Source: a phage
Sequence record: PZ452589.1
DNA length: 64,000 nucleotides
Direction: 5' to 3' (one strand)
The notes under the pieces are model-generated. The model did no database searches. It had not been told where the DNA came from and worked only from the letters and a program-made list of their open reading frames with translations. How positions within the stretch are numbered: the first letter of the stretch is position 1; each line of letters starts with the position of its first letter. Positions 543 through 58,573 of this stretch are shown here, in pieces. The translations under genes were made by a program, and so were the position numbers.

Positions 543-719
543 TTATGCTTTCTGCTTACCAAAACGAGAAGCATCATCTCGAAGAACCGCACGTGCTCGG
601 CGCATGATCTTCTCAACAGTTTGATTGATACGAGAGTTCGACCCACGCTTGTAGCCAGCGCGTTTAGAATCACCAACTTTCTTTTCAACTGCTTTCTTTG
701 CTTTAGCTTGTTTTGCCAT
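543..719 (-). CDS. small highly basic protein, 58 aa (MAKQAKAKKAVEKK..)
   Basis: Lys/Arg-rich ORF; start chosen at internal ATG 717-719 with AGAGAA SD-like sequence; track ORF extends to 761. Confidence 0.5.
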   Translation of the reverse strand: MAKQAKAKKAVEKKVGDSKRAGYKRGSNSRINQTVEKIMRRARAVLRDDASRFGKQKA

Positions 720-1117: not shown

Positions 1118-1366
1118 TTACTTCAGTGTTACCACAAAGTGACGAACTGCTTTTCGTGCAGCAGAAGCCAGAGGCTTAGCATATTTAAGTTCATCTTTTT
1201 CCTGAAGCTCAGCAGCTAATGCAGTTTGAGCAGGATTCAGATGTTTGAAATAACGCAGGATTTCAAGAGCTTCGGCTTCAACATCAATAGATGCGCCATA
1301 GTTTTCGTGACCATTATTCCATGCGTTTCGTTGCAGTTCAAGAGCGTGTTGTAATTGTTTAATCAT
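1118..1366 (-). CDS. rIII: rIII lysis-inhibition accessory protein, 82 aa
   Basis: 82-aa ORF matching remembered T4 rIII length and its position immediately downstream of gene 31. Confidence 0.85.
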   Translation of the reverse strand: MIKQLQHALELQRNAWNNGHENYGASIDVEAEALEILRYFKHLNPAQTALAAELQEKDELKYAKPLASAARKAVRHFVVTLK

Positions 1367-1505
1367 TTAAAAATTCTCGTTAGAGATTAAAACTCGGTAG
1401 TCACGTTCTTCTGAATTTCATCTTCTTTCGACAGATCTCTCAGTTGTAGACTACCACATAGAATTGTTCGGTTAACTTATTATTCCGACACCCAATTCAT
1501 ATTAT

Positions 1506-1513
1506 TATTTATA
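1506..1513 (-). promoter_or_regulatory. T4 late promoter core TATAAATA upstream of rIII
   Basis: exact TATAAATA on minus strand directly after gene 31 stop, ~140 nt upstream of rIII ATG. Confidence 0.45.
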
Positions 1514-1849
1514 TCACTTATAAAGACACGGAATAGCTTTATAGTGACAGGTAACGAATTTTTGTTTAATTTCTTTTGGCTGCTTAAGACCCAGAGCTAC
1601 AAAAGGGTGTGGAACGTTTCGAATTTGACCAACTGGAAGAGAAGTCAAATCACCAACTTCACAGAAACCTTCAGGAACATCAGGACCGACAGAGTGAACT
1701 ACACACAGTTCAGGAACTTCACCTTGAACACGTTTACCGATAATAAGTCCTGATTCTGTAACTTCTTCATCACCGGCTTGTGCAGGTTCAGAAACTAAAA
1801 TAACATATTCACCGACAGCACGAATTGGTAGCTGTTGTACTTCAGACAT
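1514..1849 (-). CDS. 31: gp31 co-chaperonin (GroES analogue), 111 aa
   Basis: [22 protein letters not shown].. matches remembered T4 gp31; length 111 aa. Confidence 0.9.
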
Positions 1850-1871
1850 CGTTTTTTCCTTTTTGTTAACA

Positions 1872-1896
1872 GATGAATTAATAATAACAAATAATT
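1872..1896 (-). promoter_or_regulatory. MotA-dependent middle promoter (TGCTTTA-N12-TATTAT) for gene 31
   Basis: minus-strand MotA box TGCTTTA (1890-1896), 12-nt spacer, TATTAT (1872-1877); T4 gene 31 is known to have a middle promoter. Confidence 0.5.
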
Positions 1897-1906
1897 CTTA
1901 AAGCAT

Positions 1907-2215
1907 TTATTTACCAATAAATTGGAGCAAATGCTCAACTTTCATACCATTAACGGAAATCAATTTGTCAATAGAAAAACCTCGCCATGCACCAAGTTCA
2001 ACATCAAATACTGGAATCATATCAGTAGATTCTTTCCGAGTAGATTCAGTCAATTTACCAGTTTGCATGGTTGGCATAAAGTCAGCATCGCGAGTACCTT
2101 TCATAACACGAATAGTACCATCAGACTTTTCAAAAACTACGTTTGAAACACCCATGGACAATTTAGTTTTCAAAATTTCACGAATTGCTACTTTTTGTTC
2201 AGTCGTCAGTTTCAT
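1907..2215 (-). CDS. hypothetical protein, 102 aa (31.1 position)
   Basis: ORF abutting gene 31 region; position-based. Confidence 0.6.
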   Translation of the reverse strand: MKLTTEQKVAIREILKTKLSMGVSNVVFEKSDGTIRVMKGTRDADFMPTMQTGKLTESTRKESTDMIPVFDVELGAWRGFSIDKLISVNGMKVEHLLQFIGK

Positions 2216-2452
2216 TTATTTACCTATTACAGTTTTAATATGAGTTGTTCCACGTTCTTTAAGAGTGGAAAGTAATTTTTGGCATTTTTCTAAATCAGAT
2301 TTCCAACTATGTGGTCTATCAATACAAACCCAGTTTGACTTATAATACTGCTTCCATTTAGAGAAAAAATACTTCTTATACTCTACAGCAAATGAAATGT
2401 TCTCGTTGGAATAAGAACTAATTGCTGTGAGCTGTACCAAACGAAATTTCAT
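2216..2452 (-). CDS. hypothetical protein, 78 aa (31.2 position)
   Basis: ORF packed between 31.1-like ORF and cd. Confidence 0.55.
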   Translation of the reverse strand: MKFRLVQLTAISSYSNENISFAVEYKKYFFSKWKQYYKSNWVCIDRPHSWKSDLEKCQKLLSTLKERGTTHIKTVIGK

Positions 2453-3033
2453 TATTCACCACAGAATTCGTTGATATTTTCCCAGTTTAACTTATTCAAG
2501 TTTTTCTTAGGAACATTAAACACTTCAATACCTGCATTTCGCAGAATATCATCCCAGCCAGGTTTATTTTTATCGTATGTTTCGCAATAAACCAGCTTTT
2601 TAATTCCAGATTGAGCTATCGCTTTTGCGCAATCTGGACATGGAGAAAGTGTTACATACATAGTAGCACCTTCAATAGAAGAACCATTTCGTGCAGCAAA
2701 CAAAATTGCATTTAGTTCAGCATGAATTTCATTTTTAGATGACCATTCCGAGTGAGCACTACGATGTTCTTTCGCCAAGACAAAACGATCAGTTGAACCA
2801 AATGATACGCATTCAGGCTTATGACCTTGAATGATAGTATGTTTAGGCTTATTCAACAACCAACCTTGCTCAGCAGCATAATCACAACAGTTCACACCCC
2901 CTGCAGGTGAACCATTATATCCGGTAGAAATAATACGTCCATTCTTTTCAATTACTGCTCCTACCTTCCAGGAGCAACATTTTGATTCCTGCGATACTAA
3001 ATATGCAATTTGAAGTACTGTACTCGCTTTCAT
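2452..3033 (-). CDS. cd: dCMP deaminase, 193 aa
   Basis: HAELNAI and SPCPDCAKAI zinc-binding deaminase motifs; length equals T4 Cd. Confidence 0.9.
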   Translation of the reverse strand: MKASTVLQIAYLVSQESKCCSWKVGAVIEKNGRIISTGYNGSPAGGVNCCDYAAEQGWLLNKPKHTIIQGHKPECVSFGSTDRFVLAKEHRSAHSEWSSKNEIHAELNAILFAARNGSSIEGATMYVTLSPCPDCAKAIAQSGIKKLVYCETYDKNKPGWDDILRNAGIEVFNVPKKNLNKLNWENINEFCGE

Positions 3034-3368
3034 TTCATAATCACCAGATAAGCAGATTTAGCAGTTTCAACACGATAAATTTCGTGACGAAGTTTAGTTA
3101 TACTTTTAATAACAGAACTAATTATATTCTGCCCATCTTTAAAGCGGTTTTTCTTATCAATAAAAATTGCACCAGCCATCTTTTTGTGAAGCTCAACTGG
3201 ATACTTCGTCACAATAATAGCATCATACACAGAAGGATGAATACTATTCACTAGAGTGTCATTCATTAAAGTTATTCTAATGAACTGTGCTGTGTCAGAG
3301 TCAAGCGCTCTATGATCGCCAGTATCATTTTCAAGACAATTATCAATTATATCAGTTAAATTCATCAT
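3030..3368 (-). CDS. hypothetical protein, 112 aa (cd.x)
   Basis: ORF with 4-nt overlap to cd; function unknown. Confidence 0.55.
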   Translation of the reverse strand: MMNLTDIIDNCLENDTGDHRALDSDTAQFIRITLMNDTLVNSIHPSVYDAIIVTKYPVELHKKMAGAIFIDKKNRFKDGQNIISSVIKSITKLRHEIYRVETAKSAYLVIMK

Positions 3369-3601
3369 AGTACGCCATACACCCTTTGTGCTTCAACTAA
3401 TCCATCAAAATCCAATTTGAGATGTGTTATTTGGTCACCATCACCTGGATTCACAATTACTAATACCGAACGAGGAGTTTCGGTAATAACACGAACCGAC
3501 GTTTCAGGAAATCGTTCAGAAACCTTATTTACCAATTCTTGAGCAAATAGTTTAACTTTTTCTTGGAATTCTTTAACAGTAATTGGTTTTTCGCTTAGCA
3601 T
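3365..3601 (-). CDS. hypothetical protein, 78 aa (cd.x)
   Basis: tightly packed ORF, overlaps neighbours by 4-7 nt. Confidence 0.55.
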   Translation of the reverse strand: MLSEKPITVKEFQEKVKLFAQELVNKVSERFPETSVRVITETPRSVLVIVNPGDGDQITHLKLDFDGLVEAQRVYGVL

Positions 3602-4122
3602 GTTGATCCTAGCTCCTTACTTTCAACATTTTTAACTAATTTGACAGAAACTAATTCAGCATCTTGGGTAATCATTACCGGACCTTCTTCATGCTCTTCA
3701 AGATATTCTAGAGCTTTCTTTTTAGCTTCTTCCTTCGTATCAGTTTGAGCATAGATATAGAACATACAACCAGTAATACCTACTACTTTCCACTTAATTT
3801 CTTTATCAGTTTTAATTTCAAATTTACTTACAGAATCATCTTTTTGAACTTCTTCGAAAAAAGAATATTCTGACATATAAGCAATTGAAAATAACGGGCT
3901 AACTTTATAGGATTCACCCATTACATCAACAGCTTTATACCAACAATCATCAATTTCACGTTTAATGCTAATAACATTTTTCGCAGGATCTATTTTTACT
4001 TTAAATGAATTTTCCCCAATAAACTGGGCAATTCGTTTATTAGCCCCGCAAGTTTCATTAAAAATATCTTTATATCCAGCTTTAAAGCGATAAACCTTAT
4101 CTTCTTCAAACCATTCGCTCAT
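3595..4122 (-). CDS. hypothetical protein, 175 aa (cd.x)
   Basis: ORF; function unknown. Confidence 0.55.
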   Translation of the reverse strand: MSEWFEEDKVYRFKAGYKDIFNETCGANKRIAQFIGENSFKVKIDPAKNVISIKREIDDCWYKAVDVMGESYKVSPLFSIAYMSEYSFFEEVQKDDSVSKFEIKTDKEIKWKVVGITGCMFYIYAQTDTKEEAKKKALEYLEEHEEGPVMITQDAELVSVKLVKNVESKELGSTC

Positions 4123-4184
4123 TTCAATTTCCTCATTTGTTTTGGTAGAGCTATAATATCACAACTCTACCGTAAAGTAAACCA

Positions 4185-4490
4185 TTAAATCGCTTTGAAT
4201 TCCGCAGTTTGAGATTCAAAGCGAATGTCGCCTTTGATAACTAGCTCAGCATCAAGACCGAATACAACAATGATATGCGCGGAACCTGGATACAACGTAA
4301 TGGCAATAGAATCCACCTGGTCTGGAAGCAAAGTGTTCAATACATGAGTCACTTGAGCGTGGATTCGAAGCTCAGCTGCGTTATCAAGTTTTTCAAACAT
4401 ATTATTAGCGATAATTTGACTAAACACTACTTCTACGATTTTAGAGTAAGTCGGAAACATATTTACCTCACATAATTTTCTTCGAGCCAA
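4185..4490 (-). CDS. hypothetical protein, 101 aa (cd.x)
   Basis: ORF; start uncertain (internal Met possible). Confidence 0.5.
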   Translation of the reverse strand: MARRKLCEVNMFPTYSKIVEVVFSQIIANNMFEKLDNAAELRIHAQVTHVLNTLLPDQVDSIAITLYPGSAHIIVVFGLDAELVIKGDIRFESQTAEFKAI

Positions 4491-17579: not shown

Positions 17580-18485
17580 TTAAAGGTCATTCAAAAGGTC
17601 ATCCAGGTCTGTGTCATCAGCACTAGATGAACTGCCAGAGCTTGAGCTCATAAAATCATCTTCAGTTTTTGTATTGAAGTCATCAACATTGAATGCATCC
17701 AAATCATCAGCAACTTTATCAGCTTTCTTAGCAGCAGTTGCAGCAGCACCGCCCATCACAGCAGTTCCCATAACTTGACCGAATTTAGTGCTCAGTTCTT
17801 CAAACGATTTGAATTTATCTTTAGAAGTCATTTCAGAAAGGTCAACCATTTGTTCGAACAGTTCTTTCTGGAAAGATTCATCGTCAATGTTTGGAATCGC
17901 AGATTGATTCAGGAATTTAGATTCGTCGTAGTTACTAAATCCAGAAACCTGTTTAACTTTCAGTACAAAGTTAGCACCTTCCCACGGACAAGTTACATCA
18001 ACCGGAGTTTCACCCATTTCAACATCAACCGCAATCATCGCGTTGATTTTATCCCAGATTTTCTTACCGAAACGATATTTAAATACTTTACCTTCATTTT
18101 CTGGAGCAGCTGGGTCTTTTACAACAAGAATATTAGCCCAGTAAGAAGTTTTACGTTTAACAAGACTGTACTCTTTATTGTCAGTGTTGTACAGATCATT
18201 TTTACTGATGTACTGACATACTGGACAAGAATCGTAATCACCGTGGGTAGATGAACACGTTTCAATATACCATTTGCCATTTTTCTTGAAACCATGATTT
18301 ACAAGAATTGCAAATGGTGCTTGTTCATCATTTTTAGACGGAAGAAAACGAATTACTGCTTGACCGTTACCCGCATTATCGAGTTTCAGTTTCCACTCGC
18401 CTTTATCTTCAGAAGAAAAACCTTTATTGCCATTCAGTTTAGCCATTTGTGCAGCAAGTTCAGCAGTAGATTTACGTTTAAACAT
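17580..18485 (-). CDS. 32: single-stranded DNA-binding protein gp32, 301 aa
   Basis: [23 protein letters not shown].. and acidic C-terminus ..DDLLNDL match remembered T4 gp32. Confidence 0.93.
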
Positions 18486-30919: not shown

Positions 30920-30949
30920 TGTGAATAAATACCCTTAAAAGGAGGGTCT

Positions 30950-55449: not shown

Positions 55450-55590
55450 TTACAATTTAGCGGCTTTCCAGAGTTGTTCAATAATCTCTTGGTCTATTTC
55501 TTTAGTTATTTCATTACGTAATAAAGCAGTAAGGGCTTTCGCCCTTTTCTTATTCAACTTTTTGAGTTGACGTTTATTTAAACGAGACAT
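55450..55590 (-). CDS. small basic protein, 46 aa (MSRLNKRQLKKLNKKRAKAL..)
   Basis: unlisted ORF between gene 56 and soc; ATG overlaps 56 stop by 1 nt; contains a GNRA hairpin. Confidence 0.4.
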   Translation of the reverse strand: MSRLNKRQLKKLNKKRAKALTALLRNEITKEIDQEIIEQLWKAAKL

Positions 55591-56108
55591 TAATAACCTC
55601 GGTCCTGACGAGCAAAGTTCTCGGCATTTTTCAGATAATAAAGTTTAAAGATTTCTTCTGCTGTAAGACCAAGACCTTGGAACATGTTCAGAACGAAATG
55701 GAGAATATCAATCATTTCAAACTTAATTTCCAGTTGGTCTTGTGGAGACAAATCAGTAATCAGAGTTTCACGACGTTCACCATGCTGCGACTTCCAAGGT
55801 TTCCATACAGCAGATGCGTCTTTTTCACCATTACTCATACCACCAAGAGAAGTCAGAAGTTCACGGAATTCATCATCAATATAATCTTTCTGATTACGCA
55901 GCCAATCAACAACTTCACCTGCAGTAGCCAAATCATCAGGATGACGATTATATTCAGGTTTATCTTTAGCTAAACGAACCTGTAAAGATTTCTGCATATC
56001 AAGCATAACTTGCAGCGGGTCTTTTTCATCACCGAGAATATCCCAATATTCATTTTGAGCTTTATCAGCGCCTTCAATCAGTTGTGAACATTCATTAAAG
56101 TAAGCCAT
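55590..56108 (-). CDS. 56: dCTPase / dCDPase gp56 (MazG-like), ~172 aa
   Basis: MAYFNECSQLIEGADKAQNEYWDILGDEKDP..; start at internal Met with AAAGGAAAAATA SD (track ORF extends to 56201). Confidence 0.85.
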   Translation of the reverse strand: MAYFNECSQLIEGADKAQNEYWDILGDEKDPLQVMLDMQKSLQVRLAKDKPEYNRHPDDLATAGEVVDWLRNQKDYIDDEFRELLTSLGGMSNGEKDASAVWKPWKSQHGERRETLITDLSPQDQLEIKFEMIDILHFVLNMFQGLGLTAEEIFKLYYLKNAENFARQDRGY

Positions 56109-56179
56109 TATTTTTCCTTTCAATTCATGGGTTAGTAGATTAATTATACAATAAATATATAAAGCAATAAGGAGGACAT

Positions 56180-56380
56180 ATGGTACAAAAATTAATGGCA
56201 CTTGTTAATGCCATAAAAGGTAATAAAAAACGTATAGCTTTTACTATTTCTGCTATGGTAGGAATTTTACTCTGGAACTTTATTCTATCACCTGTTGCAA
56301 TTGCGCATGGTGTTAATATTCCAGTAGTTACTCTTGATACATTCGTAGATCTAGCATTTGCTTTAGTTGGGTTAATTTAA
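56180..56380 (+). CDS. plus-strand small hydrophobic protein, 66 aa
   Basis: AAGGAGG SD 4 nt before ATG; two hydrophobic segments; only plus-strand ORF in this minus-strand region; ends convergently at gene 61 stop. Confidence 0.45.
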   Translation: MVQKLMALVNAIKGNKKRIAFTISAMVGILLWNFILSPVAIAHGVNIPVVTLDTFVDLAFALVGLI

Positions 56381-57405
56381 ATCTTGGCATATTTAGATAA
56401 CCGCATTTTAGCCATTAACCCCTGGGCAATATTATTTTTCATATATTCCATAATTTGTTCAGGGGTTGCACCTTCCTTTCTAATCATATCATTAACATCT
56501 TTTGATTTCCAGGGAGATTTATCCCAAAACATAACCCTTTCTCCTGCATCAACTAATTTAGTCATTCGCTTGATAGTGTCAGGGTGACGAGGTTCATTAT
56601 CTAAAACCCACACTCGTCTATCTTTAAATGGAACAACTTCTAGGTCTAATTGACCACCCGTAATAGCTATACCATTTTCAATAAAAAGTGAATCTATAGG
56701 TCCTTCTAGAACATATACATCGCCATCTTTAACTCGTTCGACTCCATAGATTTTTGTTGCCTCAGGATAAGCTTTGATGGTGATATATTTTTGAGGAGCA
56801 TCTTTCTTTAATGCACGTCCTTGAAAAGACTCAGCTTTTCCATTAGCATTATAAATTGGAATAACAAGACGAGGCTCAGAAATTTCCTTTTTGTATGTTC
56901 CCGGTGCTATGCTATTAACTAATTTAGGCCATTCGGTTGTAAACCAAAGATATTTCCATTTATCCTTTGGAATACAACGAGCTTTTACATATTTTATAAT
57001 TGGATGGTCTTCCGCCAGTTTATCTAATCTAACGCATGACGGAAGAGATTTAATTATTTTCTTCTCAGGTTGTTTAGGAAGTTCTTTAGGTTTTTCTACT
57101 GGACGACTTTTACCTTTTTCTTTTCTTATTTCAAAGATATACTCACGATATAAATCAGGTTCAAACTCCTTTAAATATATTCCGATTGGCGCATGATAGT
57201 TACAGTTATAACAATGGATATTTCCTTCATTATTATCACCATAATACCATCCACGAGCTTTATTCTGATCGGTTTTTGAATCTCCACAAACAGGGCATCT
57301 AAACCGCAATTTAAAAGTTGAACTATTATTTACTTGTGTGAATTTAGGTAAATGAGCTAATGCACGATACGCAAACTCATTATCAATCCAAGGTATTGAT
57401 GACAT
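56377..57405 (-). CDS. 61: DNA primase gp61, 342 aa
   Basis: N-terminal zinc ribbon CPVCGDS..CYNC and TOPRIM region; length equals T4 gp61. Confidence 0.9.
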   Translation of the reverse strand: MSSIPWIDNEFAYRALAHLPKFTQVNNSSTFKLRFRCPVCGDSKTDQNKARGWYYGDNNEGNIHCYNCNYHAPIGIYLKEFEPDLYREYIFEIRKEKGKSRPVEKPKELPKQPEKKIIKSLPSCVRLDKLAEDHPIIKYVKARCIPKDKWKYLWFTTEWPKLVNSIAPGTYKKEISEPRLVIPIYNANGKAESFQGRALKKDAPQKYITIKAYPEATKIYGVERVKDGDVYVLEGPIDSLFIENGIAITGGQLDLEVVPFKDRRVWVLDNEPRHPDTIKRMTKLVDAGERVMFWDKSPWKSKDVNDMIRKEGATPEQIMEYMKNNIAQGLMAKMRLSKYAKI

Positions 57406-57573: not shown

Positions 57574-57930
57574 TTAACCTCTATTCATAAAAGCATTAAA
57601 AATTTGGTCATCAATAGATGGAATAGCAACCTTTTCGGCATCATTTAGCAAATCATTAATTTCATCAGATAGCATAACACATGTGCCTTTATTTCCTGTA
57701 ATTGTTACTGCACAATTACGAACGTTTTCTTTATCAAATTTTAGGTTAATATTTTCGTAGTGAAAATCCTTTAATGCCGAATATATCTTTAAAATGAAAT
57801 TGTCTTTTACTACAATAAACCCAACCTCACTATTAAAACGTGGTTCATGGAAACTGTAATAAACCTTTTCATCTATAAAATCGTATGAAATTTTTTCCAT
57901 TTTTAAATATGAAAATTCAGAACTATACAT
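57574..57930 (-). CDS. hypothetical protein, 118 aa (61.1 position) with shared C-terminal tail
   Basis: C-terminus ..AIPSIDDQIFNAFMNRG nearly identical to that of next ORF. Confidence 0.55.
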   Translation of the reverse strand: MYSSEFSYLKMEKISYDFIDEKVYYSFHEPRFNSEVGFIVVKDNFILKIYSALKDFHYENINLKFDKENVRNCAVTITGNKGTCVMLSDEINDLLNDAEKVAIPSIDDQIFNAFMNRG

Positions 57931-57931
57931 A

Positions 57932-58573
57932 TTAACCTTTATTCATAAAAGCATTAAAAATTTGATCGTCAATAGAAACTTTTACTTTAGGCTGTTCTTC
58001 AAACGTTAATTCATATCCACATATTACAATTTTGTGATCGATACCAAAATACACAGAAGCAATATTATTAATATTATTTTCAGTGAAATCTAAATCAACA
58101 TCAATATCTTTTTGACTAACGCTCAAAGGATAATTAATACGAATAATTCGATTATCTTTAACAAAGATTCCACCGACATACTCTGTGCTGCGTTTAAAGT
58201 TTACACGTTTCCTAAATGAAAAATATTCAGGTTCTTTATGGGCTCGACTCATAGGGCTTAAAGTGTATTCCGAATATGAAATATCAAATCCTACACCTTC
58301 AATATGAGCCAAAGTGTCATGATTAAACCAATTATAATCGTATGCCAAATCCATTAAATTGTAATATGTGAAAGGCACCGGATTAACATCATATGTTGTA
58401 CCTTTAAAATCTGCCCAGGCAACGATTTCGTTATCTTTAACAATTACAAAAATTGTGTCAATAAGATATCCACGGTTATTTTCATCAGGCGTTATATTAT
58501 AACATTGTGCATCAGGAAATTTACCGTATTTAAACGGTGGATTTTTGTGCATATAATAAATCATATTATTCAC
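57932..58573 (-). CDS. hypothetical protein, 213 aa (61.2 position) with shared C-terminal tail
   Basis: C-terminus ..KVSIDDQIFNAFMNKG. Confidence 0.55.
   Translation of the reverse strand: MNNMIYYMHKNPPFKYGKFPDAQCYNITPDENNRGYLIDTIFVIVKDNEIVAWADFKGTTYDVNPVPFTYYNLMDLAYDYNWFNHDTLAHIEGVGFDISYSEYTLSPMSRAHKEPEYFSFRKRVNFKRSTEYVGGIFVKDNRIIRINYPLSVSQKDIDVDLDFTENNINNIASVYFGIDHKIVICGYELTFEEQPKVKVSIDDQIFNAFMNKG

Follow-up and report, generated by a model that had tools for sequence, protein, structure and literature searches.

A 66-codon plus-strand ORF beside gene 61 of a wV7-like Tequatrovirus is very likely the resident gene dam.1, next to a slot without dam

We found that the short plus-strand open reading frame (ORF) between genes 56 and 61 in a 64,000-nucleotide stretch of phage DNA (record PZ452589.1; this whole stretch is called the window below) is very likely the wV7-type orthologue of dam.1, a resident gene of this locus. 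On its gene 56 side is a slot that is empty here and occupied by dam in T4 and T2. The ORF is a known conserved gene of the Tevenvirinae, and it already carries a hypothetical-protein annotation in hundreds of genomes. The 2.1-kb stretch around it is 98–99% identical to wV7/T4_ev151-type Tequatrovirus phages, with 749 phage records matching, and by this measure of sequence identity the window is a wV7-like Tequatrovirus.

An earlier note on this DNA had described an interval of about 270 bp between genes 56 and 61 and, within it, a plus-strand ORF of 66 codons with an AAGGAGG Shine-Dalgarno sequence and a convergent end at the gene 61 stop. All of these features are present (Table 1). The gap between the two genes measures 265 bp (56112-56376), and the TAA of the ORF and the TAA of the primase gene share the tetranucleotide TTAA at 56377-56380. 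Gene 56, the left neighbour, is only 77% identical to T4 at the nucleotide level (blastn). This divergent stretch (55627..56148) lies in flanking DNA of 92–98% identity to T4, which presumably agrees with the SegF-associated divergence already known for gene 56. In the soc-56 interval (55450..55590, minus strand), a 46-aa ORF (phrog_14392) stands in place of the homing endonuclease gene segF of T4. On the other side of gene 61, two adjacent minus-strand ORFs of 118 and 213 aa (57574..57930 and 57932..58573) are both called gp61.2 in wV7, whereas T4 has one 61.2 gene only. Their C-terminal peptides, ...SIDDQIFNAFMNRG and ...SIDDQIFNAFMNKG, are near-identical, and the pair (57574..58573) seems to reflect either a partial duplication in tandem or a swap of domains.

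Table 1. Features of the gene 56–gene 61 region, in window coordinates
Feature	Coordinates	Strand	Basis and remarks
Gene 56 (dCTPase)	55590..56111	minus	phrog_173, E=1.5e-46; wV7 annotation; left neighbour of the ORF
Middle-promoter-like element of gene 56 (candidate)	56143..56167	minus	read from the sequence; overlaps the late-promoter element
dam junction	56149..56168		boundaries of blastn segments between T4 and the window, plus alignment; 20 nt here versus 899 nt in T4 (dam and flanks; 3327-4225 of the T4 excerpt around dam)
Predicted late-promoter -10 element AATAAATA, A(-13) variant	56150..56157	plus	motif; 22 nt 5' of the ATG
Shine-Dalgarno sequence AAGGAGG	56169-56175	plus	sequence; 4 nt 5' of the ATG
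dam.1-family CDS, 66 aa	56180..56380 (stop codon included)	plus	ORF list; phrog_2024, E=1.5e-31
Gene 61 (DNA primase)	56377..57405	minus	phrog_47, E=1.1e-106; wV7 annotation; right neighbour, convergent

The product of the ORF matches the phrog_2024 profile over its full length, with residues 2-66 on profile positions 1-65 of 65. Its annotated orthologue in wV7 is YP_007004774. The same gene is named dam.1 in T4T (HM137666) and T6 (MH550421), and RB32ORF030w in RB32. Members of the dam.1 family in Tequatrovirus are 92–100% identical in amino-acid sequence to the window ORF and agree with it in position, strand and the 4-nt overlap with the gene 61 stop. Nothing of substance differs between dam.1 of these relatives and the window ORF, except that the left flank is without dam here. 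In T4 itself, an ORF identical to the window ORF at 65 of 66 residues lies at 17738..17938 (plus strand) of NC_000866, between dam and gene 61. It falls in a 309-bp dam-61 stretch that RefSeq NC_000866 leaves empty, and it is likewise unannotated in the T4 records NC_000866.4, AF158101.6 and MT984581. On the other hand, it is annotated in T4T, T6, RB55, RB59 and newer T4 records. A literature search for dam.1 and RB32ORF030w, which included T4 Ribo-seq and small-protein studies, found nothing on this gene.

The family extends well beyond Tequatrovirus. A tblastn search with the window protein gave matches in 696 phage records. Coverage was 80% or more in 687, and 193 Mosigvirus-type copies at about 50–56% identity and one Kanagawavirus copy at 38% are among the matches. 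With the protein of the Kanagawavirus ZX14 as the query, 919 records were found and Klebsiella phages were added. Copies occur in no fewer than six genera (Tequatrovirus, Mosigvirus, Kanagawavirus, Jiaodavirus, Marfavirus and Gaprivervirus). The ORF is convergent with the primase gene, and lies on the strand opposite to the early genes, wherever synteny was inspected (the window, T4, T2, T6, HX01, ZX14, KpV477, VR7 and PhiKpNIH-6). When 1.84 billion representative proteins were searched exhaustively with HMMER, the matches were small Tevenvirinae proteins and spurious long, repetitive hydrophobic proteins, and no relatives outside small phage proteins were found.

Two variants of the locus were observed. 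In VR7 (Gaprivervirus), the family is represented by a tandem pair of paralogues in the 56-61 interval (1295..1492 and about 1501..1700 of the locus excerpt). The first, annotated as VR7ORF033w, is Mosigvirus-like. The second is Kanagawavirus/Marfavirus-like and unannotated; it has its own Shine-Dalgarno sequence, and its frame appears to continue into the 3' end of the primase gene. In T6 (2501..2701 of the locus excerpt), codon 1 of the ORF is ATT instead of ATG, the Shine-Dalgarno sequence is intact, and the record begins the gene at Met6. A 61-aa database homologue also starts at the position matching T6 Met6. Thus, residues 1-5 may not be needed, or translation may initiate at AUU.

We then investigated the predicted protein. 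AlphaFold2, run on a shallow alignment, gave helices at residues 2-12, 16-42 and 52-63 with a mean pLDDT of 80.5. The first is predicted to be a basic amphipathic N-terminal helix, and the second (about 16-42) a transmembrane helix carrying the invariant W32-N33-F34. A loop with H43-G44 and P48 follows, and then a predicted short C-terminal helix bearing D53 and D57. All five lysine and arginine residues lie in residues 4-18, none after the long hydrophobic helix, and the C-terminus reads ...AFALVGLI. The C-terminal segment is unlikely to span the membrane, because its helix has only about 12 residues, acidic residues are conserved at two of its positions, and in KpV477 and ZX14 the segment is either shorter or more polar and less hydrophobic. 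A two-transmembrane hairpin was rejected on these same grounds. Of the two hydrophobic segments that the earlier note had pointed out, both are thus real, but the second is probably not transmembrane. From the shallow alignment and hydropathy, we predict a single-pass inner-membrane protein with an N-in/C-out topology and a periplasmic tail of about 25 residues. A conserved asparagine in the middle of a membrane helix favours helix–helix association, and by analogy the asparagine in the WNF motif of dam.1 suggests such an association.

Searches for known domains and folds led back to the family itself. Scans of the ORF product and two distant homologues against Pfam (E<=10), NCBIfam (E<=1) and PADLOC gave no match. 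Foldseek found only the family itself in BFVD and nothing below E=7 in the PDB, and a profile search against PDB sequences gave nothing below E=0.5. Transposon insertion data exist for one orthologue, bas37_0144 of phage Bas37 (91945..92145, plus strand), which has the 4-nt overlap with the primase gene and whose coordinates are those of our tblastn match in MZ501089.1. In the gene-level results of the HIDEN-SEQ preprint (10.1101/2025.11.20.689424), this gene has insertions at 20 of 24 TA sites and is classified as 'Non-essential' in E. coli K-12. No depletion of bas37_0144 is given in two host comparisons, and the gene is not among the hits highlighted in the main text of that preprint. The T4 gene table of the same source is without the ORF.

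These data bear on the possibility that the ORF encodes a second lysis protein of the hole-forming kind, namely a holin or pinholin. In favour of this are the small size of the product, its hydrophobicity, its probable late expression and its mid-membrane asparagine, which would favour oligomerisation. Moreover, UniProt labels the OE5505 orthologue (A0A482MZV5) as 'Holin'. We rejected this label, as well as the 'putative head morphogenesis protein' of a T2 record, as unsupported similarity transfers or guesses. The charge of the protein is N-terminal, a charged C-terminal cytoplasmic tail is missing, and there is probably only one true transmembrane helix. No endolysin gene adjoins the ORF, the canonical holin gene t is present in the window, and no holin family was matched. 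In addition, the Bas37 orthologue is non-essential in the Tn-seq results given in the preprint, whereas losing a sole holin would block lysis. A hole-forming role is thus very unlikely.

We then investigated how the ORF might be transcribed. All loci examined have the heptamer ATAAATA 16–22 nt 5' of the ATG, in eight upstream contexts whose surroundings are wholly different. The octamer is AATAAATA in the window, wV7, T6, HX01-type Mosigvirus and KpV477; GATAAATA in T4 and T2; CATAAATA in the second Mosigvirus type and VR7; and TATAAATA, a perfect match to the consensus, in ZX14 and PhiKpNIH-6. The T4 late promoter is TATAAATA at positions -13 to -6, with a poorly conserved T(-13) (PMC1524935), and A is found at -13 in 9 of the 50 listed T4 late-promoter sites (PMC2988020). 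In the window, ATAAATA occurs 14 times where 37.5 copies are expected, an under-representation of about 2.7-fold, and all 100 of 100 shuffled sequences had at least 14 copies. Where other copies lie directly 5' of a start codon, the gene is a late one, namely 34, 36, soc or the holin gene t. The copy before t in the window is AATAAATA (30925..30932), and T4 t has the perfect TATAAATA (697..704 of the T4 locus excerpt); the former is a natural A(-13) variant ahead of a lysis gene. At four perfect TATAAATA copies (8048 and 45144 on the plus strand; 18641 and 1512 on the minus strand), no ORF begins a short way downstream, and these copies might be late promoters of an internal or antisense kind.

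The early and middle transcripts of T4 have a single polarity, whereas its late transcripts have either polarity (PMC2988020). The window ORF lies on the plus strand in a region where early and middle transcripts run the opposite way, and therefore it should be a late gene. Its product is probably made late in infection. The antisense orientation, which had struck the earlier note as unusual, is then an ordinary one for a late gene, and a late-promoter core does precede the ORF. We infer that transcription would start at about 56163 in a gp55-dependent manner, leaving a 17-nt leader. This candidate late promoter is read from a motif of 7–8 nt, and AATAAATA also lies inside the spacer of the putative middle promoter of gene 56 on the minus strand, so that part of its conservation in the window context could serve the minus strand.

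The minus-strand element of gene 56 consists of TTGCTTTA (reverse complement of 56160-56167), an 11-nt spacer and TATAAT (reverse complement of 56143-56148). We take TTGCTTTA to be a MotA box from our general knowledge of the consensus. The element is equivalent in position to P(M)16.53 of T4, which has a mot-box and a -10 (X01416), and to the oriA primer promoter (NC_000866). As there is no dam here, the late-promoter element and the gene 56 middle promoter interdigitate. The break in homology with T4 exactly separates the -10 from the MotA box, and a consensus MotA box is nonetheless found in the replacement sequence. A palindrome, ATGGCACTTGTTAATGCCAT, lies within the 5' end of the ORF (56195..56214) and is identical in T4. 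Read on the minus strand (56214..56195), this palindrome is followed by TAATTTTTGT, making it the only terminator-like site of the region by score, and it may weakly terminate or attenuate transcription between gene 61 and gene 56. An Rfam scan of 55900-56700 gave a single chance snoRNA match (E=0.73).

With such a convergent layout, the main product of the plus strand could be a late antisense RNA that runs into gene 61 and silences the primase or early mRNAs, the peptide being secondary. The overlap of the two genes is compatible with this, and a search for terminators gave none on the plus strand downstream of the ORF. However, purifying selection at the protein level would be left unexplained. 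Because of this selection, an antisense role could coexist with coding but would not be the main constraint, and we consider it highly improbable as the principal function.

The protein-level evidence is as follows. Nei-Gojobori dN/dS values are 0.07–0.39 in all comparisons, and synonymous sites are saturated between genera. Even at amino-acid identities as low as about 30%, and across six or more genera, the reading frame, start codon and Shine-Dalgarno sequence are retained, and an (A)GGAG(G) site is kept in every homologous locus although the flanks diverge. Alignments show invariant or near-invariant residues at I12-K13, W32-N33-F34, P38, G44, P48, V56-D57 and G64-L65. The window ORF has all the motifs of the family: basic residues clustered at the N-terminus, W-N-(F/L/Y) within the transmembrane helix, (H/Q)G following that helix and a C-terminal G-L. 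The phrog_2024 match, the wide tblastn spread and the purifying selection indicate that the ORF is more than a chance frame. Judged by these patterns of conservation, it is a real coding gene. The predicted folding of the 5' region of the mRNA has a z-score of 0.16, and this region is therefore without special structure.

Alternatively, the ORF might be no gene at all, its open frame and conservation reflecting only roles of the minus strand, for instance in the terminator or 3' end of gene 61 transcripts and in the promoters of dam and gene 56. The T4 reference annotations do lack the ORF, the minus strand does have the terminator-like hairpin, and X01416 places a potential early dam promoter in the same T4 spacer. 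Yet the frame, its start and its Shine-Dalgarno sequence survive across the genera with dN/dS well below 1, the WNF, G44 and G64-L65 residues are invariant, and 687 of the 696 matches are full length. We find this alternative hardly credible.

The history of the locus is best seen from dam. The T4 record places dam between genes 56 and 61, just as the earlier note had said. In T2, dam is followed by an extra 181-aa ORF and then by dam.1, and T6 has no dam although its ORF is annotated as 'dam.1'. When the window was aligned with T4, a comparison that the earlier note had proposed, dam was found to be missing from the 56-61 interval here. A tblastn search with T4 Dam gave no homologue in the whole 64-kb window (nothing better than E=1.5) or in wV7 23.9-123.9 kb (nothing better than E=0.9), and these two stretches together represent the whole of that genome type except about 2.5 kb. 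The earlier note had also allowed that nothing would be missing if dam lay elsewhere and T4 had the same 56-61 architecture. A relocated dam was thus not found in the sequences searched, but T4 does have the same ORF in the same place, with dam inserted beside it.

Record counts point in the same direction. T4-type Dam (at least 90% identity) is found in about 182 records and the ORF (above 90% identity) in about 503 Tequatrovirus records, and the T4-type dam-proximal spacer is found in 180 of 504 records. By these counts, dam is an accessory cassette of about 0.9 kb that is present in about one-third of Tequatrovirus records. Since T4 and T2 carry both genes and the record counts agree, the ORF is the conserved resident and dam the variable cargo. 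Other phages have other cargo in the slot: a GIY-YIG-like 381-aa protein in KpV477, LprI-like and MazG-like proteins in PhiKpNIH-6, and a 94-aa ORF in ZX14. The locus can thus be described as a fixed T-even frame of 56, slot, dam.1 and 61 in which the slot cargo is exchangeable, and therefore the missing dam of the window is ordinary accessory-gene variation. The 181-aa ORF of the T2 type in the dam-dam.1 interval (1865..2410 of the locus excerpt, minus strand) is mislabelled as 'head outer capsid protein' in AP018813, and it has no Pfam match. Bas37 has a shorter ORF of 61 aa at the same spot.

The earlier note had called this a replacement locus, but the idea that the ORF is novel cargo, an alternative cassette substituted for dam, deserves next to no credence: dam is missing relative to T4 and the ORF does occupy most of the 265-bp gap, but dam and the ORF coexist in T4 and T2 (the T4 copy at 65 of 66 identical residues), the ORF and gene 61 are 97.7% identical to T4 at the nucleotide level (blastn) with the dam cassette on the left as the sole structural difference, and conservation of the ORF extends to genera in which dam is never seen at this locus.

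Returning to dam.1 as a resident gene, we consider it very probable that its product is a late-expressed, laboratory-dispensable accessory protein of the inner membrane. A possible course of events can be outlined. Late in infection, gp55-RNA polymerase would start at AATAAATA and produce a plus-strand mRNA with a short leader; a late gp55 start is proposed because the motif is conserved and the early and middle transcripts of T4 run the opposite way. The strong Shine-Dalgarno sequence would then allow translation of the 66-aa protein. This protein would enter the inner membrane with its Lys-rich N-terminus in the cytoplasm, one helix carrying the asparagine of WNF, and an acidic amphipathic tail in the periplasm. 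Speculatively, helix–helix or periplasmic contacts might modulate lysis timing, lysis inhibition or envelope integrity, the protein not being a holin proper. As to the specific role, it is only a tentative and speculative suggestion that the protein modulates an event at the envelope late in infection, for example lysis timing or lysis inhibition. That dam.1 is an overlooked late-acting single-pass regulator, tuning holin T, RI-dependent lysis timing or envelope integrity, is a rather doubtful proposal; it would have been missed because the T4 reference annotation used in most omics and genetic screens lacks dam.1.

The biological consequence of this finding is modest. Nevertheless, the T4 reference records omit a gene that is conserved in at least six genera of the Tevenvirinae, and screens that rely on these records leave dam.1 unscored, an example being the T4 gene table of the HIDEN-SEQ study. 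As a conserved small membrane protein that is probably made late, it is a cheap and reasonable target for a knockout and lysis-phenotype study.

In comparison with known systems, dam.1 has only its neighbourhood in common with T4 Dam, a DNA-(adenine-N6)-methyltransferase, and the two proteins are unrelated. With class II holins and pinholins it shares small size, hydrophobic helices and presumed late expression. It differs from holins on the points given above, namely the charged C-terminal tail, the endolysin neighbour, the family match and its dispensability. The S21-68 pinholin has two transmembrane helices, as opposed to probably one in dam.1. Closer parallels may be found among the RI antiholin, Imm, Sp and Ac of T4, which, like dam.1, are small, laboratory-dispensable T-even proteins of the inner membrane or periplasm. 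RI has a larger periplasmic domain than dam.1, and Imm and Sp are encoded by early genes on the opposite strand. The HMMER, Pfam and Foldseek BFVD searches revealed no sequence or fold likeness between dam.1 and any of these four proteins. By analogy, the functional niche of the RI antiholin, Imm, Sp and Ac would be the likeliest one for dam.1.
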